NCBI RefSeq assembly: GCF_000305935.1
Contig: NC_018870.1
Coordinates: 55,942 to 79,941 of the forward strand
Source of the DNA: Thermacetogenium phaeum DSM 12270
Lineage (GTDB): Bacteria; Bacillota; DSM-12270; Thermacetogeniales; Thermacetogeniaceae
Reading direction: 5' to 3'
DNA length: 24,000 bases
Position 1 is the stretch's first letter; each line of letters starts with the position of its first letter. Of the stretch, positions 4,867-22,279 are shown in pieces. The notes beneath the pieces are model-generated. The model saw only the letters and a program-made list of their open reading frames with translations. It did not search any database and had not been told where the DNA came from. Both the position numbers and the translations under genes were made by a program.

Positions 4867-5508
4867 CTACTGCTCTAAGGCGGCGATGACCTCTTCGTCG
4901 GTAGTCTGCCGAAAATCCTCGTAGAACTGCCCCACTGCGTAAAAGGCTGCGGGGGCGTGGAGGCAGATGAGGTCGTCTACGAGCAGGCGCAGTTCGGCGA
5001 CGGCCTCCCTGGAGGCTACCGGCACCGCCAGGACGAGGGCCGCCGGTTCCTGTTTGCGGAGCGATTGCAGGGCGGCTTTTACCGTCATGCCTGTGGCAAT
5101 TCCGTCGTCGATGAGGATCACCGTTTTCTCCCGGCAGTCGAGGGCGCCCCGCCCCCTCCGGTAGTAGCGGCTGCGCCGTTCCATTTCTTTCCTCTCCCGC
5201 TCGATCTGCTCCTGAAGGTCGCTCTTCGTTAAGTTCAACAAGGACAGGGCGCGTTCGTCGAAGATCACCGCACCGTCGGGAGCTGCTGCCCCTATGGCCA
5301 GTTCCTCGTTGAAGGGAGCCCCGATCTTGCGGGGAATTATCACGTCGAGGGGGGCCTGCAGGGCCCTGGCCACTTCTGCTGCCACGATTACTCCACCGCG
5401 AGGAATGCCAAGTACGAGCACATTTTTCCCCCTGTAATGAGTTAATTCTTCGGCCAACCTCTTGCCCGCATCCCTGCGGTCTAAAAAAACCAGCTTACTC
5501 ACCTCCAC
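4867..5508 (-). CDS. Phosphoribosyltransferase-domain protein (COG1926-like)
   Basis: FLDRRDAGKRLAEEL..VLVLGIPRGGVIVAAEVARAL.APLDVI..RKIGAP.N.ELAIGA and the PRPP loop VILIDDGIATGMT. The N-terminal 28 aa of the 241-aa track ORF are Pro/Gly/Ser-rich and unlikely to be real. In-frame GTGs at 5508 and 5502 are candidate starts; the start is uncertain. Confidence 0.75.
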   Translation of the reverse strand: MEVSKLVFLDRRDAGKRLAEELTHYRGKNVLVLGIPRGGVIVAAEVARALQAPLDVIIPRKIGAPFNEELAIGAAAPDGAVIFDERALSLLNLTKSDLQEQIERERKEMERRSRYYRRGRGALDCREKTVILIDDGIATGMTVKAALQSLRKQEPAALVLAVPVASREAVAELRLLVDDLICLHAPAAFYAVGQFYEDFRQTTDEEVIAALEQ

Positions 5509-5807
5509 AGGACAGCTGCCGGTTGCCGAGGGGCCAGATCCCGGAAGACCTGACGCCGGAGGCTGTTTTTCCGCCCCCTGGCCAGGCGGCAACTGCCCTC
5601 TCTTTTGAAACTATTGTAGCAGCGCCCGGCGGCCGCCTCAAGACTAAAACACCGGACTGTTGAGTCGGAAGTCGCTGGCCGGGGTGCCCTTCCCCGGGCT
5701 TCCTGCCAGGGCTCCCCGGGACCACTGCTGCTGCAGGCAGGCGGGGGAAAGAGCCGCCCCTTTATTGCATAAAGATTAGGGATCACCATTAAAGGGGGTG
5801 CTTCCTT

Positions 5808-6080
5808 TTGGAGCCGCTGGATGCTCTGCAAACCCTTATCTTCATGTCGGTGGTGGTGGAAGCATTGACGGCAATTTTTCGCCGCTTCGTCAGCAAGAAG
5901 GCCTCGGAACTGGTGACGATTCTGGTCGGGATCACCCTTTGCTGCGCCTACGAGGTGGGCATTTTCAGCAGCCTGGGGCTCACGACCAGCTATCCTCTGG
6001 TCGATTACTGCGTTTCCGGGATTATTATATCCCAGGGTTCCAACGCCTTATCCGGGCTTTTTCGCCTGCGCTACAAGTGA
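5808..6080 (+). CDS. Small hydrophobic protein, holin-like (tentative)
   Basis: 90 aa with 2-3 predicted TM segments and a charged loop (FRRFVSKKASE). The layout is reminiscent of A118/phiLC3-type holins. TTG start with AAAGGGGG 10 nt upstream. Confidence 0.45.
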   Translation: MEPLDALQTLIFMSVVVEALTAIFRRFVSKKASELVTILVGITLCCAYEVGIFSSLGLTTSYPLVDYCVSGIIISQGSNALSGLFRLRYK

Positions 6081-6085
6081 GCTCG

Positions 6086-6114
6086 TTGACAAATTTCCAG
6101 AAATCGGTTAAGCT
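6086..6114 (+). promoter_or_regulatory. Candidate sigma-A promoter for cvpA
   Basis: TTGACA (6086-6091), 17-nt spacer, TAAGCT (6109-6114). The -10 is weak. Confidence 0.35.
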
Positions 6115-6257
6115 AAGAGCCAGCATAATGCGGCGCCCTCCGGCTGTGGAAAGCGGGCAGGGGCTGCGGCGATCCCTGAATGCTTTCTCCAGGCTTTAGG
6201 GACAACCCGGCCTGCCTGTCGCCTATCGGCCGGGACGGGACGAATGGGGGGAGAGAG

Positions 6258-6971
6258 ATGAATCTTCTCGACGGAATCATCCTTATTCTTCTGGCTGCAG
6301 GTGCTCTGAGCGGTTACCGGCGCGGGCTTATCGGCGCAGCAGCCTCTTTCTTGGGGTTCCTGGGAGGGATCTGGCTGGCCGGCCACTATTACATCCCTTT
6401 GGCCGGCATCCTGGAGCAGCGCCTTGGTTTGGAGGAGCTCTTCACCCGCATCCTCTTTCCCTTCTGCGCCGGAATCCCCGTCAGCGGTGGGGAGCCTCTT
6501 TTGAATCCTGTGCCGGGTGCGGATGTCCCCGGTTTTCCGCCTTCCCTCTGGGAACCGGTGCAGGCGTTGAATCTGGGCATCGGCGGTGTTGCCATCGCCC
6601 GCACGCTGGCTGACAGCCTGGTAAAGCTGTTGGCCTTCTTCCTCATCTATGCCCTGGCCTCCTTTACCCTGGGTTCGCTGGCGGGCTTCTTGGGCGGAAT
6701 CTGCACCAGAATTGCCGGGCTGTTCCTGCTGGGGGGTGTGAACAGATTGGGAGGCCTGGCCTTGGGGCTGGTGACCAGCGCCCTCTTCGTGGCCGTTGCG
6801 GTGGGGATGCTGACCCCTTTCATCTTCGGTCTCACCCTGGGCCTACCGGCAGCCGAGGGGCTGCGCCAGGCGCTTCTCAACAACTGGAATGCCTCACTGC
6901 TAATACCTTATTTCACCAGAAGCTGGGGAGCGATCGCCTTGGTGCTGGCGCGCCTCTTTCGAATGGTCTAA
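6258..6971 (+). CDS. cvpA: CvpA-family membrane protein
   Basis: MNLLDGIILILLAAGALSGYRRGLIGAAASFLGFLGG is a typical CvpA N-terminus, with further TM segments. ATG 6258 is preceded by GGGGGAGAGAG. The 6180 start in the track adds an implausible leader. Confidence 0.8.
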   Translation: MNLLDGIILILLAAGALSGYRRGLIGAAASFLGFLGGIWLAGHYYIPLAGILEQRLGLEELFTRILFPFCAGIPVSGGEPLLNPVPGADVPGFPPSLWEPVQALNLGIGGVAIARTLADSLVKLLAFFLIYALASFTLGSLAGFLGGICTRIAGLFLLGGVNRLGGLALGLVTSALFVAVAVGMLTPFIFGLTLGLPAAEGLRQALLNNWNASLLIPYFTRSWGAIALVLARLFRMV

Positions 6972-7183
6972 ACTGGCAGGAGGGCAGCCGAAGTGTTTCG
7001 CAGGCGGGCGGTGAGTAGTATAATAAGGATAAACCGGCGGGTAATCGCCAACCCCCGGGCCTGCCGGAGGCCGGCGGCTGCGGCGGCGAACCGGGCGTTC
7101 GGCTACTCCAGCTCTAAAACCGGTGGGCAAGACCCGGCGTTCCGTCCGGGAAGGAAGGCTTTTTTTAGCGATGAAGGAGCTGC

Positions 7184-7211
7184 ACAATTTTTTGAAGACA
7201 ATTTTTTGAAG
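7184..7211. repeat. Perfect tandem direct repeat, 2 x 14 nt (ACAATTTTTTGAAG)
   Basis: 7184-7197 and 7198-7211 are identical and adjacent, 38 nt upstream of the selD start. Confidence 0.95.
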
Positions 7212-7248
7212 GGGGCAGTCCTCGCCCTGAAAAAGGGGGGAGCACAAG

Positions 7249-8307
7249 GTGCCGAAAGAGCAAGAAACCATCAGATTGACCCGCTTTGCCCGCTACTCCG
7301 GTTGAGCGGCCAAACTGGGGCCGGGTGCCCTGGAGGAAATACTGGCCGGGCTGCCGCGCTTTGAACATCCCGACCTTTTGGTCGGCACTGGGATACCCGA
7401 TGATGCCGGGGTTTACCGCCTGCGGCCGGATCTCGCCTTGGTGCAGACGGTGGATTTCTTCACACCGGTGGTGGACGACCCCTACTGGTTCGGCCAGGTG
7501 GCTGCGGCCAATGCCTTGAGCGACATCTACGCCATGGGGGCAACCCCCTTGACGGCCTTGAACTTGGTTGCCTTTCCCTCCTGCAAGCTGGGCCCGGAAG
7601 TGCTCCGCGCCATCCTCAAGGGGGGGTGCGACAAGGTGGCCGAGGCGGGTGCGCTGGTGCTGGGCGGGCATTCCGTTGAGGATGATGAGCCCAAGTACGG
7701 GCTGGCGGTGACCGGCGTCGTCCATCCCGCGGAAGTCGTCACCAACAGCGGTGCCTGCCCCGGGGATTTCCTCATCCTTACCAAACCGCTGGGGACGGGG
7801 GTGATGGTGACGGCCCTGAAGGGAGGCCTCCTCACTCCCGACGAAGAGAGGAAGCTGGCGGAGGTGATGGCCTTGCTCAACGCCCCCGCCGCAGAAGCCA
7901 TGCGCCTGGTGGGCGTCCATGCCTGCACCGATATCACGGGATTCGGCCTGCTCGGACACCTGCGGGAAATGGCCGTCAACAGCGGTGTGGATGTGGAAAT
8001 AGAGCTCGCTTCCCTCCCGCTGCTTCCAAAGGCGAAGAAGTTTGCGGAGGAAGGGCTGATTCCCGGAGGTGCCTACAGAAACAAGGAGTATCTCAAGGAC
8101 CATGTGGAGATCGGCGGCCGGATCTCTCCTGCCGAGGAGGACCTCCTCTATGACCCGCAGACATCCGGGGGGCTGCTTATCGCCGTCTCCGGAGAAAAGC
8201 GGGAGCAGCTGCTTTCCGCTCTGCGGGAAAAAGGGGTTGCTTCCCCTCGTGCCGTCGGACGGGTTACGGGAAGGGGAAAGGGCAGGATTCTGGTGCGGGG
8301 GGTTTAA
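7249..8307 (+). CDS. selD: Selenide, water dikinase (selenophosphate synthetase), selenocysteine-containing form
   Basis: GTG 7249 (GGGGGGAG upstream) reads VPKEQETIRLTRFARYSG-TGA-AAKLGPGALEEILAGLP... in frame with the 309-aa track ORF (7378-8307). The TGA sits at the Cys/Sec position of the N-terminal glycine-rich loop of SelD. The rest (DDAGVY, VQTVDFFTPVVDDPY.FG.VAAANALSDIYAMGA.P, GGHS.ED.EPKYGLAVTG) is canonical SelD. Confidence 0.9.
7303..7305 (+). other. In-frame UGA recoded as selenocysteine in selD
   Basis: TGA at codon 19 of the extended selD frame. It is flanked by conserved SelD sequence on both sides (..YSG U AAKLGPG..). Confidence 0.85.
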
Positions 8308-9758: not shown

Positions 9759-9965
9759 ATGGCACCGATGCGGTTTAGCCTCGGCGATGTCGTGCGCATG
9801 AAAAAACAGCATCCCTGCGGGAATGACGAGTGGGAGATCCTGCGGGTGGGGATGGATTTCCGCATCCGCTGCCTGAAGTGTGGGCGCCAGGTGATGATCC
9901 CCAGGGCGAAGTTCGAAAGGAGCGTCAAGGCCGTGGTCAGGGAGGCGCTCTCGGATGAAGAGTAG
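9759..9965 (+). CDS. DUF951-family small protein (YyzM-like)
   Basis: ..FSLGDVVRMKKQHPCGNDEWEILRVGMDFRIRCLKCGRQVMIPRAKFERSVK matches the DUF951 pattern that usually sits just upstream of rpsF in Firmicutes. The start is ambiguous (GTG 9750, ATG 9759 or ATG 9768). Confidence 0.8.
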   Translation: MAPMRFSLGDVVRMKKQHPCGNDEWEILRVGMDFRIRCLKCGRQVMIPRAKFERSVKAVVREALSDEE

Positions 9966-10010
9966 AGCTTAAAGCACACGCCCGGAGGTCTGCGAAGGGC
10001 TTTGATCTTC

Positions 10011-10039
10011 TTGTTCCCGGTTGCTTCTCATGGTATAAT
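10011..10039 (+). promoter_or_regulatory. Sigma-A promoter of the rpsF-ssb-rpsR operon
   Basis: TTGTTC (10011-10016), 17-nt spacer, extended -10 TGgTATAAT (10031-10039). Confidence 0.7.
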
Positions 10040-10045
10040 CTTTTA

Positions 10046-10096
10046 GAATTGTCCCTGCCCCTGCGGGGGCCATCAGTCCGAAGGGAGGTGGGAAGT
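10046..10096 (+). promoter_or_regulatory. Candidate rpsF leader hairpin (possible S6:S18 autoregulatory site)
   Basis: TCCCT (10052-10056) can pair with AGGGA inside the SD (10082-10086), enclosing hairpin GCCCC-TGC-GGGGC (10057-10070). A structured S6/S18-binding leader is known upstream of rpsF in many bacteria; its identity here is not verified. Confidence 0.35.
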
Positions 10097-10387
10097 TTGC
10101 GGCCTTATGAGATTCTTTTCATCCTCAAGCCGGATCTTGAGGAGGAGGCGACGACTGCCGCCATCGATAGGTTCGCAAACCTGATCCAGCAGAATCAAGG
10201 ATCTGTCGAGCAGATCAGCCGTTGGGGAAAGAGGCGGTTGGCCTACGAGATCGCGGGCTACCGCGAGGGCTACTACACCCTGATCCTATTCCAGGGTGAA
10301 CCGGCAACGGCAAAAGAGCTGGATCGGGTGATGCTCCTTACCGATGAAGTGCTGCGCCACATCATAGTCAGGCGCGATGCCGCATAA
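10097..10387 (+). CDS. rpsF: 30S ribosomal protein S6
   Basis: TTG 10097 with AAGGGAGGTG 6 nt upstream. (M)RPYEILFILKPDLEEE..RWGKRRLAYEI..EGYY is canonical S6. The 10049 start in the track is a spurious extension through the leader. Confidence 0.95.
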   Translation: MRPYEILFILKPDLEEEATTAAIDRFANLIQQNQGSVEQISRWGKRRLAYEIAGYREGYYTLILFQGEPATAKELDRVMLLTDEVLRHIIVRRDAA

Positions 10388-10413
10388 AAGCTGGCAAGGG
10401 GGAGGGGAAGGCA

Positions 10414-10863
10414 TTGTTTCTTAACCGGGTGATCTTGATCGGCCGCAGTACTCGGGAGCCGGAACTGCGGTTTACCGGCTCCGGGACGGCAGTGGCCAAT
10501 TTTACCCTTGCCGTAGACCGGCCGTTCCTGAATGCCCGTGGTGAGCGGGAAACCGATTTCATCAGGGTTGTGGTCTGGAGAAAGCTCGCTGAGACCTGCG
10601 CCAACTACATGGGTAAAGGGCGCCTGGTGGCCGTCGAGGGGCGCCTGCAGGTGCGTTCCTATCAGACGCCGGAAGGGCAGACGCGAACTGCCACGGAGGT
10701 TGTAGCTGATACGGTAAGGTTTCTGGATCGTGCCCGTGAGGGAGCTACAGCCGCCGGGCCTACCGGGCCGGAGGCGGCTCCGGAATCCGGAGAAGAGCCC
10801 GGCTTCCTGGACGATCCTGTTTTTAACGATGAGGGTTTCGGTATGGAGGAACCGCCGTTTTAA
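10414..10863 (+). CDS. ssb: Single-stranded DNA-binding protein
   Basis: [35 protein letters not shown]-fold N-terminus, Gly/Pro/Glu-rich linker, acidic tip ..GMEEPPF. TTG start. Confidence 0.95.
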
Positions 10864-11146: not shown

Positions 11147-11179
11147 AAGAGGGAGTGTGCCGCCCCCTCTTTTGTTTTT
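11147..11179 (+). terminator. Probable Rho-independent terminator of the rpsF operon
   Basis: AAGAGGG (11147-11153) / CCCTCTT (11165-11171) stem followed by TTGTTTTT. Confidence 0.55.
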
Positions 11180-11204
11180 CGCCCGGCATGTCTGCTGAGC
11201 CGGT

Positions 11205-11344
11205 GGGTTGAAAGAAACCCCCGAGTTTGTCGGTTGACCCCCGAGTTTGGACGAATCTACCTGGACAAAGGCTACAGCTACATCTTCGCCTCCCGCCTGA
11301 AGAGAATAAAGAAAAGCGTCCAAAAAGGACGTCTTCTCACCTGA
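11205..11344 (+). pseudogene. Possible short remnant of a DDE (IS4/IS1634-like) transposase
   Basis: Frame reads ..PEFGRIYLDKGYSYIFASRLKRIKKSVQKGRLLT* (stop 11342-11344). The LDKGY and Y.YI...RLK strings resemble motifs I recall around the second Asp of IS4/IS1634 transposases. Very short, with no start codon; weak call. Confidence 0.3.
11218..11249. repeat. 12-nt direct repeat CCCCCGAGTTTG x2, separated by 8 nt
   Basis: 11218-11229 and 11238-11249 are identical. Confidence 0.9.
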
Positions 11345-11522
11345 TGGTTATCTGGGAAAAAGATATTGCGCCTGCTGCGCATGAAACAACCGAACAATGT
11401 GATTGCTGCTGATGACTTCCATGATCAGGTAATGTAGTGGCAAAATGCGCGCTTTTTAAAAAACTTTTTTAGGTTTCATACGGGTTTGAGCAGGGTCATC
11501 TGATAAACTCAGGATTGTCAAG

Positions 11523-11537
11523 ATATGATGGATTAAA
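11523..11537. repeat. Terminal inverted repeat (left copy)
   Basis: ATATGATGGATTAAA; contains the TAA stop (11533-11535, minus strand) of the 431-aa ORF. Confidence 0.95.
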
Positions 11538-12828
11538 TTTTCACCCCCTTGGAAGCTAGATATTCCTTGATCTCCTGATGATCCCGGTAGTGTTCCCGGA
11601 CAAGTTTCAGGTGCTCATTTATCAAGGAGATCCCCCTTTTCAAGAGGCGTGCCATAAGCTCAGGTGGAACACCGAACAAATACAAAATCAGGACTGCTTC
11701 GAAGGTTCCGATGTAGTTATCCACCGCCCGTGGTGAGTGATGAGTCATCCGGGCAATGTCTTTAACCGTGTAGCCCTGTAGATGCAGGCCGACGATCACA
11801 TCCTTGTGTGTCATGCTTCTCCCGGCATCAAGGATAGTCCCCGGGGTGGGCACTACCAGGTTATGTTCCCGCTGCACGCTGCGAATCAATTCCGAGATGC
11901 GGGCAGAACTTAACTGGAAGATCCACTGCAGCTCCATCAGAGTCAAGAGGCCGTTCTGGCGGTAGGCCTCGAAGCAGACCCGCACGATACGCCTCTTAAG
12001 TTGCTCCAGGAATCCCGGCACGGTGTCCGGCTGCTGCTCAAGCTCCTCGGGCTTCCAGACGGTGATAATCACCGGCGTCAACTGCCTGAAGCGGGTACTG
12101 ACGTCTTCCGAGAGGCGGGCGCTGACATGGGTCACGATGAGAGGCATCTCGTATGGCTTTAACTCCTTGGTTCGCGGGCAGCAGATGTGGCGCAGGGCGA
12201 TCACCTCTTCCACCAACTGGCGGGCCACCACCCGCCCGAGCCCGGCCTCCGCCGCCACGAATTCTGTCAGTTCCTTGAGCACCCGCCCTGGTGCCAGCAA
12301 ATCCGGCGCCTGCAGGCGGTCAGCAGGCAGGACTGGCTGAATTTGTTCAATCATGCAGTCCCAGGATGCCGCATCCGTCTTGCTGTAGGGCTGGATATCC
12401 TGGCACAGTTGATCAACATAGCTGGAGGGCCCTTTCTTACGCACCAGCGACCAGGGGTCGATGATGCGCACGAGGTCGCCCCGGCCGCCCTTGGGAAACC
12501 CCATGTGGTAACTTTGGAGGCAGCGCTCCAGGATCAGCTGCCTGGCCATGCCGAAGTCCCCGCCGCCGAGGATCGGATCCAGATACTCGGGGCAAAACAG
12601 AGGCAGGCGGGCCTGGCTCTGAGCCTTTTGCACGTACAGTTCGAAGGGCTTCACCCGCTCGATGCCCAGGACGGACTCCATCTCTTCCATGCGGCGGTTG
12701 ATCTCTTCTACCAGGAGCCGGGCGACCAGCGACTCCTTGCCGAAGTCGTACCTGCGGGCCAGGTACTGCACCTGGTAGTTGACGAGAGTTCTTTCCACCA
12801 GCGGCCGGTAGAGTTCGCGGCGGTTCAT
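11533..12828 (-). CDS. Multi-HTH protein, DUF1670-like C-terminal module (paralog of the upstream 513-aa gene)
   Basis: 431 aa of normal composition. C-terminal ~130 aa (..AYRQNGLLTLMELQWIFQLSSARISELIR......VPTPGTILDAGRSMTHKDVIVGLHLQGYTVKDIARMTHHSPRAVDNYIGTFEAVLILY..GVPPELMARLLKRGISLINEHLKLVREH) align with the C-terminus of the 513-aa protein. They match my memory of the Pfam DUF1670 pattern (L...DLA.LL..S..T.S......E.....LPTRG...D.G...THK..I..LY..G.....IA....HS....RYI..F..V). ATG overlaps the upstream stop (ATGA). Confidence 0.7.
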   Translation of the reverse strand: MNRRELYRPLVERTLVNYQVQYLARRYDFGKESLVARLLVEEINRRMEEMESVLGIERVKPFELYVQKAQSQARLPLFCPEYLDPILGGGDFGMARQLILERCLQSYHMGFPKGGRGDLVRIIDPWSLVRKKGPSSYVDQLCQDIQPYSKTDAASWDCMIEQIQPVLPADRLQAPDLLAPGRVLKELTEFVAAEAGLGRVVARQLVEEVIALRHICCPRTKELKPYEMPLIVTHVSARLSEDVSTRFRQLTPVIITVWKPEELEQQPDTVPGFLEQLKRRIVRVCFEAYRQNGLLTLMELQWIFQLSSARISELIRSVQREHNLVVPTPGTILDAGRSMTHKDVIVGLHLQGYTVKDIARMTHHSPRAVDNYIGTFEAVLILYLFGVPPELMARLLKRGISLINEHLKLVREHYRDHQEIKEYLASKGVKI

Positions 12829-14366
12829 CGCTTGACACCCCGCAGGCTTTTTTTTAGCTCGTCCTCGTGCAGTTCAAAAACTTTACGCAGGTGGTGTAGC
12901 CGGAAAGCGTATTCGGGGCCGGAGTATTCCTGAATCAACTCCAGATAAGTATTAATCAACTTAACTGATCGCCCGGTCACCCGCCGGATTAAGGGGACGG
13001 TCAGGCCGCGTTCGGACAGCACCAGCACTGCGGCGAATTCCTTGAGATAGTTCTCTATGGCCTCGTAGGAGTGCCCCGTGCGGGCGACGATCTCGGTCTC
13101 GGTATGCATCTCCAGATAGAGCTTGATGATCTTTTTGCGGTGAGTGACCCCGCGTCCGATATCGCACTCCATCCCCCTTAAGGGCACCGCCACGGCGGGG
13201 TGGGACCGCACCAGGCGGGAGATCGCCTCGGGGTGGATACCCAGCAGGTAGCCCAGGTCGGCATAGGTCAGGTAGCCCCCGGCGTATTTGGCCTGAGTGG
13301 CATAGCGCAGAACTTTCCGGAACTTGATATCGCTAAGGCGGTTTAAGTCCCGGTCCACATCCGGCGGCGGCACATCCTCCGGGTCTATTAGGGTAAGGCT
13401 CACCGGTACCAGACGGCAGGCCTCCAGGGGCTTGCCGGCCGGCTCGGTGCTGGCTACCGCCCAGTACACCACGTCCCCGTCAGGCCGGCTGTCGGAGAGG
13501 GCAGTCAGCATCTCCTCCGCTATTTCTCTCAAAGCCCTGGCCTTGACGGGTGACAGAGCAAAGTCCACCATGAGTTCATTCATGAAAGATGCCCAATCCC
13601 CGAAGGAAGGGGGTACGCCCGGCTCTTCCAAAAGGGGAAGCAGGGTCTTCTCCGGGACTACATGTACGATGGCCGCCCAGGCCTCCTCCTCGGGATCGCC
13701 CTGCTTAAACCTACCCTTTAGGATCGAGCGGGCAACGTGGGAAAAGCGGGACCACAGCTGCCGGAACGCTTCCCGGGATAGAGCAGCCGTTCGTCTGACT
13801 TCCGACAGGGACTCTCCATCCAGGTATCTGGCCAGCGCCCAGGCAGAGCGCAACATGCCACCACGCTCCCGGTCGACCCTGGGGAGACCGGCTACCGGTA
13901 CCCACATTCCTTCCCGGCGCAGTCCCGCCAGGCGGCTCCTGAGGGAGGTGGGCGTGATGTTACAGAGCACGGTCAGCTGTTTGGCGCTCAAGAGGGCATC
14001 CTGGCGGTAGGCCTCCTCGATCAAGCGGAGGATGCGGCCAGCCTGCATGGTGGACAGCCCGAACTCCAGCTCCAGGTCTAAATCTTCAATGTCGTAGGGG
14101 GTGAGCCTGATCTTTTTCAGTGCTTTATGCTTTCGAGAAAAGGCATCCCGTCCGGACACGGCGTCAGACAGGATCTGATTCGGGCCCCGTATCCCCGGCT
14201 GATTGGAAATCCACCTGGAGGTCCGGTACCCCAGCAACCGGGCCTCGGTCTCGCTCATGCCGAGTTCCTCGATAAAACGAACGGCGAGCAGGCTCTCCAG
14301 AGTCTTCTTGCGGGCTGATGCCACCTGGTATTTCAGGCGTTGACGGTATTCCTTGGCTCTTCCCAC
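12825..14366 (-). CDS. Multi-HTH protein with two DUF1670-like modules
   Basis: 513 aa. GTG start with AAGGAGG 7 nt upstream. N-terminal module (EEAYRQDALLSAKQLTVLCNITPTSLRSRLAGLRREGMWVPVAG). C-terminal module (..YAGGYLTYADLGYLLGIHPEAISRLVR.....VPLRGMECDIGRGVTHRKKIIKLYLEMHTETEIVARTGHSYEAIENYLKEFAAVLVLSERGLTVPLIRRVTGRSVKLINTYLELIQEY). Confidence 0.7.
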   Translation of the reverse strand: MGRAKEYRQRLKYQVASARKKTLESLLAVRFIEELGMSETEARLLGYRTSRWISNQPGIRGPNQILSDAVSGRDAFSRKHKALKKIRLTPYDIEDLDLELEFGLSTMQAGRILRLIEEAYRQDALLSAKQLTVLCNITPTSLRSRLAGLRREGMWVPVAGLPRVDRERGGMLRSAWALARYLDGESLSEVRRTAALSREAFRQLWSRFSHVARSILKGRFKQGDPEEEAWAAIVHVVPEKTLLPLLEEPGVPPSFGDWASFMNELMVDFALSPVKARALREIAEEMLTALSDSRPDGDVVYWAVASTEPAGKPLEACRLVPVSLTLIDPEDVPPPDVDRDLNRLSDIKFRKVLRYATQAKYAGGYLTYADLGYLLGIHPEAISRLVRSHPAVAVPLRGMECDIGRGVTHRKKIIKLYLEMHTETEIVARTGHSYEAIENYLKEFAAVLVLSERGLTVPLIRRVTGRSVKLINTYLELIQEYSGPEYAFRLHHLRKVFELHEDELKKSLRGVKR

Positions 14367-14378
14367 CAGTTTGCCTCC

Positions 14379-14651
14379 TTAACCCTTTCTGAACCCCGGC
14401 CGCAGTCTAAACCTGCGGCAGGATCCCATACCTGGGAGTATTGGAGGATTCTTGATCTCATCTATTACTTCCTGCATCCGTTTCAGTTTCTGCATGTCCC
14501 GGAGGATATCTTGGATCTGCCTATAACGGTCTTCATCATAGCGTCCGAGTGATGAAATTACTCGTTGTCTGGGATACCCTCCGCTAACATAGTAGTTGTG
14601 AGCTATCTGCATGTAACGGAGATCTCTGACTCTTACAATGCGTATGAACAT
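14379..14651 (-). CDS. Small ORF resembling the N-terminus of IS1634-family transposases (stand-alone or truncated)
   Basis: MFIRIVRVRDLRYMQIAHNYYVSGGYPRQRVISSLGRYDE.. follows the N-terminal pattern I recall for IS1634 transposases (MFIR.V....G..Y.QIVESYR..GK..Q.V...LG....). The last ~20 aa are Arg/Gly-rich and look out of frame. Its stop overlaps the RBS of the 513-aa gene. Confidence 0.45.
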   Translation of the reverse strand: MFIRIVRVRDLRYMQIAHNYYVSGGYPRQRVISSLGRYDEDRYRQIQDILRDMQKLKRMQEVIDEIKNPPILPGMGSCRRFRLRPGFRKG

Positions 14652-14657
14652 GGATCT

Positions 14658-14672
14658 TTTAATCCATCATAT
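14658..14672. repeat. Terminal inverted repeat (right copy)
   Basis: TTTAATCCATCATAT; on the minus strand it encodes the last codons and stop of hicB (..Y M M D *). Confidence 0.95.
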
Positions 14673-15102
14673 ATCGGTTGAAGAAGTGTTTGTCAACAAA
14701 GCCAAGTTGTTCCTTTAAAGCGTACTGAAGGACTTGAGAGAAGTTTATTCCTTCTTTTTCGGCTGCGTCATTGAGCCACTTGGGTATAGTTAATGTTTTC
14801 TTGATCGCCCGATTTTGTGTCTCGTCACGAATAGGTTCTGTACGAGCCTGGATTAGGGTTACGAAGGCGCCAGGGCTTGCATCTTCCGGTAATTTTACTT
14901 CCACAGGGTTGGAAGGAACCGGAATTTCATCGCCGTCCTCCTCCATGCCATACAAGTGGAGAGCCATGGCTTCGGCAGCCATCTTTAATGCTTCGTCCAG
15001 AGTATCGCCTTCCGTTACACAACCGGGAAGGTCGGGAAACGTAACAGTGTACCCGCCATGTTCGTTGGGATCAAAAATCGCAGGATAAACGTATTTAGGC
15101 AT
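14659..15102 (-). CDS. hicB: HicB-family antitoxin (HicB fold + C-terminal RHH-like DNA-binding region)
   Basis: MPKYVYPAIFDPNEHGGYTVTFPDLPGCVTEGDTLDEALKMAAEAMALHL is a typical HicB N-domain. C-terminal ..KKTLTIPKWLNDAAEKEGINFSQVLQYALKEQL is ribbon-helix-helix-like. AAGGAGG RBS. Directly downstream of hicA. Confidence 0.9.
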   Translation of the reverse strand: MPKYVYPAIFDPNEHGGYTVTFPDLPGCVTEGDTLDEALKMAAEAMALHLYGMEEDGDEIPVPSNPVEVKLPEDASPGAFVTLIQARTEPIRDETQNRAIKKTLTIPKWLNDAAEKEGINFSQVLQYALKEQLGFVDKHFFNRYMMD

Positions 15103-15129: not shown

Positions 15130-15315
15130 TTACTTAAGGAGCCCGGCCTGCTTAAGTATTGACTTGAATGTTTTTGGTGCTAGAGATTTTCTTGGGTGAG
15201 GGACGGTTACTTTGCCAGGTTTTGTTGGGTGTTTGAACTGATGATGACTTCCCGCGACCCCCACCAAGTACCAACCGTCCTCTTCAAGCAATTTGATTAT
15301 TTCGCGGGAAGACAA
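15130..15315 (-). CDS. hicA: HicA-family mRNA interferase toxin
   Basis: (M)SSREIIKLLEEDGWYLVGVAGSHHQFKHPTKPGKVTVPHPRKSLAPKTFKSILKQAGL is canonical HicA/YcfA. TTG start with no well-placed SD (see findings). Confidence 0.85.
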   Translation of the reverse strand: MSSREIIKLLEEDGWYLVGVAGSHHQFKHPTKPGKVTVPHPRKSLAPKTFKSILKQAGLLK

Positions 15316-22246: not shown

Positions 22247-22279
22247 ACCCCGCCGGGCGTCCCGATCCTGCCGGGAAGG

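Follow-up and report, generated by a model that had tools for sequence, protein, structure and literature searches.

A stretch of 24,000 nucleotides of the Thermacetogenium phaeum DSM 12270 genome (contig NC_018870.1, positions 55,942 to 79,941; hereafter the window) carries, at its positions 11514-14686, one copy of a widespread mobile element with asymmetric fixed ends and no known recombinase. This module encodes a small protein of 90 aa and two larger proteins of 513 and 431 aa, hereafter long and short, which belong to the Pfam family DUF1670 (PF07900) (Table 1). The original prediction, made from the letters of the DNA, had described the two larger proteins as paralogues built of several helix-turn-helix (HTH) units, had likened them to the DUF1670 family, and had proposed that such a coupled pair within a unit bounded by inverted repeats may be the DNA-recognition or recombination machinery of an element, or else a regulatory pair. 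Family membership is clear, as both proteins score far above the curated gathering threshold of 25 bits, and neither has a confident match to a characterised family. Within the phylum, PF07900 is present in 27 of the 301 genomes sampled, with a patchy distribution and often as fragments, and among 14 control genomes it is matched only in Methanosarcina acetivorans. A literature search found no text on DUF1670 or PF07900, and the function of the family is unrecorded.

The C-terminal modules of the long and short proteins are 33% identical over 169 aa (BLASTP, E 8e-22), which establishes their paralogy. In a second BLASTP alignment (26% identity over 96 aa, E 2e-4), residues 70-160 of the long protein pair with part of the short one, and the additional N-terminal module that had been suspected in the long protein is therefore real, as a half-module; a second match within the long gene (positions 69672-70121 of the genome) also supports it. 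The Pfam match of the long protein falls into two stretches. The layout of the long protein is thus an N-terminal half-module followed by a full DUF1670 module. The start of the short gene overlaps the stop of the long one by 4 nt (ATGA), consistent with the predicted translational coupling, and the pair is kept in relatives.

The ends of the element were set at the points where copies with different flanks stop agreeing; many of the loci compared come from metagenome-assembled genomes (MAGs) that are chimeric across the repeat. In the genome of T. phaeum (G000), the sequences of three left ends, and likewise of three right ends, coincide as far as fixed points beyond which they differ, and the module therefore spans exactly the 3,173 bp given above. 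Its left end reads CTTCTTCAACCGAT-ATATGATGGATTAAA-AGATCC-ATG, and its right end TTTAATCCATCATAT-CTTGACAAT. The left tip, CTTCTTC[A/T]ACCG.., stands beside at least seven different flanks in Limnochordia and beside five in G005, a genome of the same family as that of the window, and fixed ends with varied flanks also occur in the P0016 lineage. At an insertion into a sigma factor gene of G005, host sequence resumes directly past the AAT of the right end. The 15-bp inverted repeat that had been noticed is real: it is a perfect pair, with about 0.01 expected by chance in 5.2 kb according to our estimate, and its core is conserved in lineages that share only ~50% protein identity. However, it does not bound the unit, being subterminal, with the true ends lying 14 bp beyond it on the left and 9 bp beyond it on the right, and the two tips are unlike each other. 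The stop codon of the short gene falls within the right copy of the repeat.

Relatives of the module, with 50-96% identity, are found in records labelled as Bacillota, Actinomycetota, Deltaproteobacteria, Planctomycetales, Candidatus Hakubella, and a Thermoplasmata archaeon MAG. All complete relatives display the same gene order, namely a small open reading frame (ORF) of 83-103 aa, a long DUF1670 gene of 493-513 aa, and a short one of 429-436 aa. No other cargo accompanies the DUF1670 pair in any lineage, the pair being the only large genes, and the three genes are all under purifying selection, with ratios of nonsynonymous to synonymous substitution rates (dN/dS) of 0.12-0.20. Further copies or fragments are present in the genome of T. 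phaeum itself, and the many flanks seen in relatives confirm a multi-copy distribution; our survey of gene neighbourhoods likewise found DUF1670 genes elsewhere in pairs, in several copies, and flanked by inverted repeats, as the original prediction had anticipated. Most contigs that carry the module are ~3 kb long (for the Limnochordia protein P0094, 584 of 693 index blocks hold contigs of 2-5 kb), which looks like the signature of a collapsed multi-copy repeat. A tblastn search of PLSDB for carriage on plasmids gave no match. No empty site was found for the window copy, as no relative is close enough, the genus being represented by this genome only among those compared.

The right end of the module nearly always lies against the outer tip of a terminal repeat from an insertion sequence (IS) of the IS1634 family, or against a look-alike in host DNA. 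In at least six lineages it directly adjoins the right terminal repeat tip of a convergent, full-length IS of this family, whose transposase has 557 aa in Limnochordia, 549 aa in the P0012 lineage (where a second, different IS is also a partner), 528 aa in the P0047 lineage, 531 aa in the P0016 lineage, and 553 aa in an Actinomycetota MAG. An unbiased scan of metagenome contigs, with the 20-nt right end as query, returned 10 true junctions. Seven of them have at least 1.2 kb of downstream sequence, and in six of these seven a complete, convergent transposase gene of the IS1634 family follows, from yet further lineages. Right-end flanks with no transposase in view were scored with a position matrix made from 15 bona fide IS1634-family tips and compared with random 14-mers: 8 out of 12 rank within the best 0.5% when read at the exact offset (Mann-Whitney p 9e-8). 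Among the high-scoring flanks, two from G005 are host coding sequence, namely CATTCATTGGACAC within an ABC ATPase gene and CCTGGATTTGACGG, which corresponds to the T-V-K-S-R codons of an extracytoplasmic function (ECF) sigma factor gene. Insertion occurs in one orientation only. In the window itself, the partner is an internally deleted and truncated IS1634-family element, IS-B; its last 157 bp include the transposase C-terminus ..KILRLLRMKQPNNVIAADDF.. (from comparison of the translation with the intact IS-B transposase), and an intact copy elsewhere in the genome encodes a transposase of 549 aa (G000 1794252-1795949).

This association does not appear to have been simply handed down. Partner transposases are 28-42% identical among the first four partner lineages, the closest pairs reaching 56-60% once the metagenome partners are added, and DUF1670 proteins are 46-73% identical. 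Co-divergence of the module and its partner IS was looked for, and the two sets of distances showed no correlation (Spearman 0.2, not significant, in a comparison of low power to which six L112 pairs add noise). Moreover, the three right ends in the genome of T. phaeum are 91-98% identical and abut three different tips. Given these uncorrelated distances and near-identical right ends on different tips, the association must have been re-made repeatedly rather than merely inherited. When the IS1634 tip matrix is applied to the tips of the module itself, their scores do not exceed those of random sequence (0.27-0.94 of random 14-mers score as high). The terminal inverted repeats of IS1634-family elements are of the type C-----YT.. 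(De Palmenaer et al. 2008, PMC2266710), with which the module tips agree only in the first C and, in some lineages, in positions 7-8.

One insertion site could be reconstructed in G005, where the copy is 85-91% identical to the window module. Joining its left flank (contig C69) to its right flank (C85) gives an uninterrupted ECF sigma factor of ~165 aa (..IPEGTVKSR|LQKARSLVENF..), with 0 bp gained or lost. Since the sigma factor reading frame is restored intact, the module must have entered by itself and duplicated 0 bp of its target, its insertion point being just 5' of the C that opens the repeat-like motif. Direct repeats do exist around some copies, in which they enclose module and IS together (11 bp in L036, 215 bp in contigs C59/C36 of G005), with the left tip of the module touching one of the two repeat copies. 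These duplications are most simply explained as the work of the IS, the module having later slipped between the duplication and the repeat tip. Duplications of 5-6 bp are the norm in the IS1634 family, and long and variable ones are known for IS1634/IS1549 (PMC2266710); a solo Limnochordia IS (IS-557) has a 5-bp duplication, ATAGT. A 5-bp GCCGT in L034 was rejected as a duplication made by the module, because the right tip is atypical there, the L032, L034, and L038 contigs are chimeric (one flank is shared and the other is not), and no other copy shows it. As a side observation, the intact IS-B is bracketed by a direct duplication of at least ~690 bp (an identical 230-codon frame at G000:C1:1793039-1793728 and 1796079-1796768), which looks like the very long target duplications of IS1634/IS1549.

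The first gene of the module provides a second link to the IS1634 family. The first ~45 residues of the 90-aa protein are homologous to the N-terminus of IS1634-family DDE transposases (BLASTP, E ~1e-6), and a hidden Markov model made from 13 small proteins scores 11-44 bits against residues 1-50 of each of the seven IS1634-family transposases that were tested, whereas the DUF1670 profiles do not match the IS1634-family transposases tested. A small ORF occurs in every complete relative. The possibility that it is a decayed IS1634 transposase is ruled out by its purifying selection and by a length that is kept in all lineages; the selection argues that it is an integral gene of the element and not a scrap of transposase. 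In a 441-kb bioreactor contig (L116), ~280 nt of G+C-rich and possibly structured sequence separate the small ORF from the long DUF1670 gene, as against 12 nt in the window.

A second type of DUF1670 element provides a useful comparison. A 3,155-bp contig of G012 consists of exactly one long and short DUF1670 pair, 35% and 26% identical to those of the window, with a leader of ~300 nt, no small ORF, and an inverted repeat of its own. Its left tip, CTTCTAAGACC, recalls that of the window, CTTCTTCAACC, the common motif being CTTCT..ACC. A relative of this element in G005 is multi-copy and has eight different right flanks, none of which (0/8) is repeat-like; at one site, occupied in G005 and empty in G012, there is no duplication of 4 bp or more. 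As this second type is mobile without an IS1634 end, DUF1670 pairs define mobile elements even there. Targeting of repeat tips goes with the presence of the small ORF, in a sample of two element types.

Both DUF1670 proteins gave confident AlphaFold2 models, based on 45-47 homologues, in which helices and beta-hairpins make up the structure. In these models the repeated unit is predicted to comprise a beta-hairpin, a long helix, a winged HTH, a poorly ordered but conserved linker, a second HTH, and further helices. The linker follows the pattern VP.RG..D.GR..TH[KR], with the core D-x-G-R-x-x-T-H-[RK], and the invariant residues of its loop are D334, H341, and K342 in the short protein and D402 and H409 in the long one. 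Foldseek matches are HTH-sized pieces (MntR/DtxR/MarR, NarL/LuxR, KorB, psq and paired-type), including weak BFVD matches to psq-type, homeodomain-like, and paired-domain HTH proteins; the long protein has no PDB fold match at E<0.2, and the short one has no PDB or BFVD match at E<0.02, where matches are to short HTH pieces only. A profile search of the DUF1670 proteins against PDB sequences gave nothing at E<0.1, and NCBIfam, PHROGs, PADLOC, and Pfam nothing beyond DUF1670 and weak HTH matches, the weak Pfam similarities being to sigma-70 region 4, AbiEi, and HTH families.

Searches directed at known recombinase classes were equally negative. There is no Phage_integrase or Resolvase match in Pfam, and the best integrase-like Foldseek row has an E-value of 5.1 and a probability of 0.03; a G-H-S..N-Y motif that could be read as that of a tyrosine recombinase was discarded, since it sits in a predicted HTH and has no fold match. 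For DEDD enzymes, neither DEDD_Tnp_IS110 nor Transposase_20 is matched in Pfam at E<=0.1, and there is no fold match. Y1_Tnp, the domain of the HUH (Y1) TnpA of the IS200/IS605 family, is not matched either. That family has subterminal hairpins, whereas the two 15-bp repeats, with 3.1 kb between them, do not form a local hairpin, although no separate search for such hairpins at the ends was made. Finally, Pfam gives no DDE_Tnp_1 match in any of the three proteins.

Taken together, these data suggest that the DUF1670 pair would be the end-recognition machinery and probably also the recombination machinery of the element. The central proposal of the original prediction is therefore upheld in part: the pair and the small ORF are the sole conserved genes of a mobile unit without a known recombinase, and the modelled multi-HTH structure of the pair supports DNA binding only. 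We suggest that the DUF1670 pair would bind the two subterminal repeats, each module acting as a bipartite reader (HTH, G-R linker, HTH), and would synapse the ends. The small protein would bind the IS1634-type repeat in the target, in the register of the IS transposase, and thereby pick the insertion point. Strand exchange would be carried out by the DUF1670 complex through a catalytic site that is unrecognisable by sequence or fold, for which the D..G-R..T-H-K/R loop is a candidate. In the window, IS-B would have entered the 3' end of hicB, the module would have docked on the right tip of IS-B, and IS-B would then have decayed. We give roughly an even chance to this reading as a whole, that is, to a repeat-tip-targeting element in which the DUF1670 pair binds and synapses the ends and catalyses, and the small protein selects the target. 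It can be extended, more tentatively and in a form that we find somewhat improbable on balance, to the view that DUF1670 is a new class of transposase or recombinase, with a fold unlike those of DDE, DEDD, HUH, tyrosine, and serine enzymes, which moves a superfamily of bacterial and archaeal elements without target duplication, and whose three-gene subfamily captured the DNA-binding head of an IS1634 transposase and parasitises IS1634 termini.

Several observations weigh against this account. Neither Pfam, nor Foldseek against PDB and BFVD, nor the AlphaFold2 models revealed a catalytic fold or motif in the three proteins, and the proteins of the element yielded no RNase-H-like, HUH, DEDD, tyrosine or serine recombinase domain. 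The 0-bp duplication is, for this subfamily, that of one reconstructed site, for which two contigs of a draft MAG were joined. In addition, all five DUF1670-carrying genomes tested also carry IS1634-family transposase genes. According to the main rival, the module is a satellite of IS1634, whose three proteins would only recognise DNA (the module ends and the target), and an IS1634-family DDE transposase, supplied by the docked IS or by another copy, would cut and join in trans. In its favour are the lack of a catalytic fold in the module and the presence of such transposases in those five genomes. Most copies adjoin a full transposase gene of this family, insertion takes place precisely at the outer edge of the terminal repeat, where the transposase cleaves, and a small protein that shares the N-terminal domain of the transposase could recruit or mimic it. 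However, the ends of the module are unlike IS1634 repeats, DDE insertion normally leaves a duplication and there is none at the reconstructed site, and the insertion sites of the related type without the small ORF show no likeness to such repeats. We consider this explanation unlikely, but a serious contender.

A further alternative is that the module is a passenger of an IS1634-family element and moves only with it as a compound transposon, with its left end serving as an alternative outer end, as in the one-ended mobilisation of ISEcp1 type, and with the DUF1670 proteins as regulators of the IS. The direct repeats that flank module and IS together in L036 and C59/C36 would be expected in this case, and are typical of IS1634/IS1549 (PMC2266710). 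Such exclusive co-movement is nevertheless contradicted by the module-alone insertions, which lie within host genes with no IS nearby and show no duplication. Moreover, the score of the left end on the IS1634 tip matrix is no better than random, which rules it out as a mimic of the IS1634 repeat, and the module is joined to very different IS1634 lineages, so that repeated precise docking would be needed anyway. We hold this alternative to be quite improbable. Finally, the DUF1670 proteins could be cargo that takes no part in movement, either as a pair of ordinary transcription factors or as a module for defence or addiction. This would suit proteins built of HTH modules and weakly similar to sigma-70 region 4, AbiEi, and HTH families, but is highly improbable, because in no lineage are these sole large genes joined by other cargo or by anything else that could serve as machinery. 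In addition, the sites that they presumably bind are the subterminal repeats of the element itself, they have no PADLOC or PHROG match, and DUF1670 pairs recur in the second type with different ends and the same left-tip motif.

The preferred reading, of a DUF1670 element that targets repeat tips, can be set against known systems. IS4321 and IS5075, which belong to the IS1111 subgroup of the IS110 family, use the terminal inverted repeats of Tn21-type transposons as targets, always at the same position and in the same orientation; their ends are asymmetric, and the target is not duplicated. They are the closest to the present element in behaviour, as it is likewise site- and orientation-specific, without duplication, toward repeats of IS1634 type. 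However, they use a DEDD transposase and the guide RNA of the IS110 family, whereas the element has no DEDD enzyme and three genes unrelated to IS110 proteins; they also insert inside the repeat, and the element beside its tip. The likeness to the IS1634 family itself lies in the 90-aa protein and in the attachment of most copies to ends of that family. Nevertheless, IS1634-family elements have a DDE_Tnp_1 transposase of ~500-570 aa, a size of 1.5-2.0 kb, and a 5-6 bp duplication, whereas the element has none of these, measures 3.17 kb, and has unlike tips. It is thus not a member of the IS1634 family, having no DDE domain, unlike ends, and no duplication.

The paired-type domains of Tc1/mariner and IS630 transposases consist of two HTH units joined by a basic minor-groove linker of GRPR type. 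The modelled DUF1670 modules resemble them in having two HTH units and a short conserved G-R linker. In Tc1/mariner and IS630, however, these domains are fused to a DDE/D catalytic domain and TA is duplicated, whereas no catalytic domain follows in DUF1670 proteins and there is no duplication. The role that we propose for the small protein would be similar to that of the TnsD and TniQ-type selectors of Tn7, where a dedicated DNA-binding protein directs insertion at a fixed offset and orientation. Tn7 differs in its TnsABC core and its 5-bp duplication, the element having no TnsABC-like core and no sequence or fold similarity to that system. As for DUF1670, both large proteins are clear members of the family as Pfam defines it, and the pairing, the small third gene, the ends, and the target go beyond this definition.

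To our knowledge, every well-studied prokaryotic insertion sequence uses one of a handful of enzyme classes. Here, an element whose precise movement is shown by comparison of sequences, and which is present in several bacterial phyla and in an archaeal MAG and often multi-copy, encodes only HTH-type proteins without a published function. If the DUF1670 pair catalyses, it would represent a new class of DNA-rearranging enzyme, with an insertion that looks programmable, is free of duplication, and is orientation-specific. If instead the IS1634 transposase is borrowed, this would be the first protein-coding IS satellite described, and would explain how a detached transposase head can redirect insertion. 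With either reading, DUF1670 gains a testable role. For annotation, this provides a rule, namely that a mobile element can be recognised by a DUF1670 pair together with its fixed ends. IS1634 termini are shown to act as landing pads, and many orphan metagenome contigs of ~3 kb are explained by the element.

Table 1. Features of the DUF1670 module and its surroundings, in window positions (G000, genome of T. phaeum; AF2, AlphaFold2; pLDDT, predicted local distance difference test; pTM, predicted template modelling score; rc, reverse complement)
Feature	Positions	Strand	Evidence or remark
Whole mobile module, 3,173 bp, with its three genes and both ends	11514..14686	-	Multi-copy end comparison
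Left-end tip CTTCTTCAACCGAT (minus strand)	14673..14686	-	Shared next to differing flanks
Left copy of 15-bp subterminal inverted repeat, ATATGATGGATTAAA (minus strand)	14658..14672	.	6 nt upstream of small-ORF ATG
90-aa protein gene	14379..14651	-	Homologue of IS1634-family DDE transposase N-terminus; dN/dS 0.12-0.20; without Pfam match
Long DUF1670 gene, 513 aa	12825..14366	-	Pfam 191.8 bits (E 1.3e-56), two stretches; AF2 pLDDT 86.5, pTM 0.80; dN/dS 0.13-0.17
Short DUF1670 gene, 431 aa	11533..12828	-	Pfam 121.8 bits (E 3.7e-35); AF2 pLDDT 90.7, pTM 0.90; dN/dS 0.13
Right copy of 15-bp subterminal inverted repeat	11523..11537	.	Perfect repeat
Right-end tip ...CTTGACAAT (minus strand)	11514..11522	-	[C/A]TTGACAAT in most lineages
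IS-B terminal repeat tip, rc CCTGAGTTTATCAG	11500-11513	+	Butted against module right end
Last 157 bp of decayed IS1634-family element IS-B	11357..11513	+	94% identical to 3' end of intact copy, G000 1794164-1794320
Internal fragment of IS-B transposase gene	11260..11355	+	85% identical to G000 1794980-1795074
hicB antitoxin	14659..15102	-	Pfam HicB_lk_antitox 67.7 bits
hicA toxin, neighbour outside element	15130..15315	-	Pfam HicA_toxin 87 bits

On its left side, the module lies against a toxin-antitoxin locus. The adjacent hicA and hicB domains correspond to the definition of a HicAB toxin-antitoxin system, which is a neighbour and not a part of the element. The 3' end of hicB has been replaced by the left end of the module from the third base of a His codon (14688-14686) onwards, so that its last eight codons and stop are provided by the element. 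All three genes of the module lie on the minus strand, as do hicA and hicB. The only good promoter-like site is upstream of hicA (15379-15350, minus strand), and none was matched at the left end, so that transcription of this copy may depend on read-through from the promoter of the toxin-antitoxin genes. An outward promoter formed by the TTGACA of the right end was dismissed, as no suitably spaced -10 box follows and the promoter scan listed no site. On the other side, just downstream of the rpsR terminator (11169-11220), lies a short repeat shared with positions 22259, 657481, and 2936126 of the genome (83-91%).

Other loci bear the marks of further rearrangement. In L049 and L110, both of the P0047 lineage, a different, AT-rich element with repeated AAAGTGGACT motifs lies within the right end of the module, and appears to have duplicated ~17 bp of it (TTTAAACCATCATATCT). 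Two derivatives with internal deletions and both ends kept were observed in L091 (G306:C1, about 5943-7623) and L140 (G005:C109); one is 1.7 kb long with a fusion of the long and short genes, and in the other, of ~1.2 kb, the left end is joined to the 3' part of the short gene. These are possible non-autonomous forms, similar to miniature inverted-repeat transposable elements.

The genome of T. phaeum also contains a second, divergent DUF1670 pair (L018, G000:C1:128000-143000), whose long gene is frameshifted (5120-6720) and whose short gene lies at 6717-7907. A 1.9-kb IS1634-like IS is inserted 55 bp upstream of this pair, another IS cuts its 3' end, and a 98%-identical fragment of the window's short gene with the right end follows (9788-10417), the locus being a graveyard of nested insertions. 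The IS1634-like transposase beside the pair was rejected as a part of the element, as it belongs to an independent 1.9-kb IS with its own repeats and three other full copies. Finally, L093 (G103:C5:51000-64000) carries a tandem pair of shorter DUF1670 proteins, with ORFs of 265 and 281 aa and one module each.

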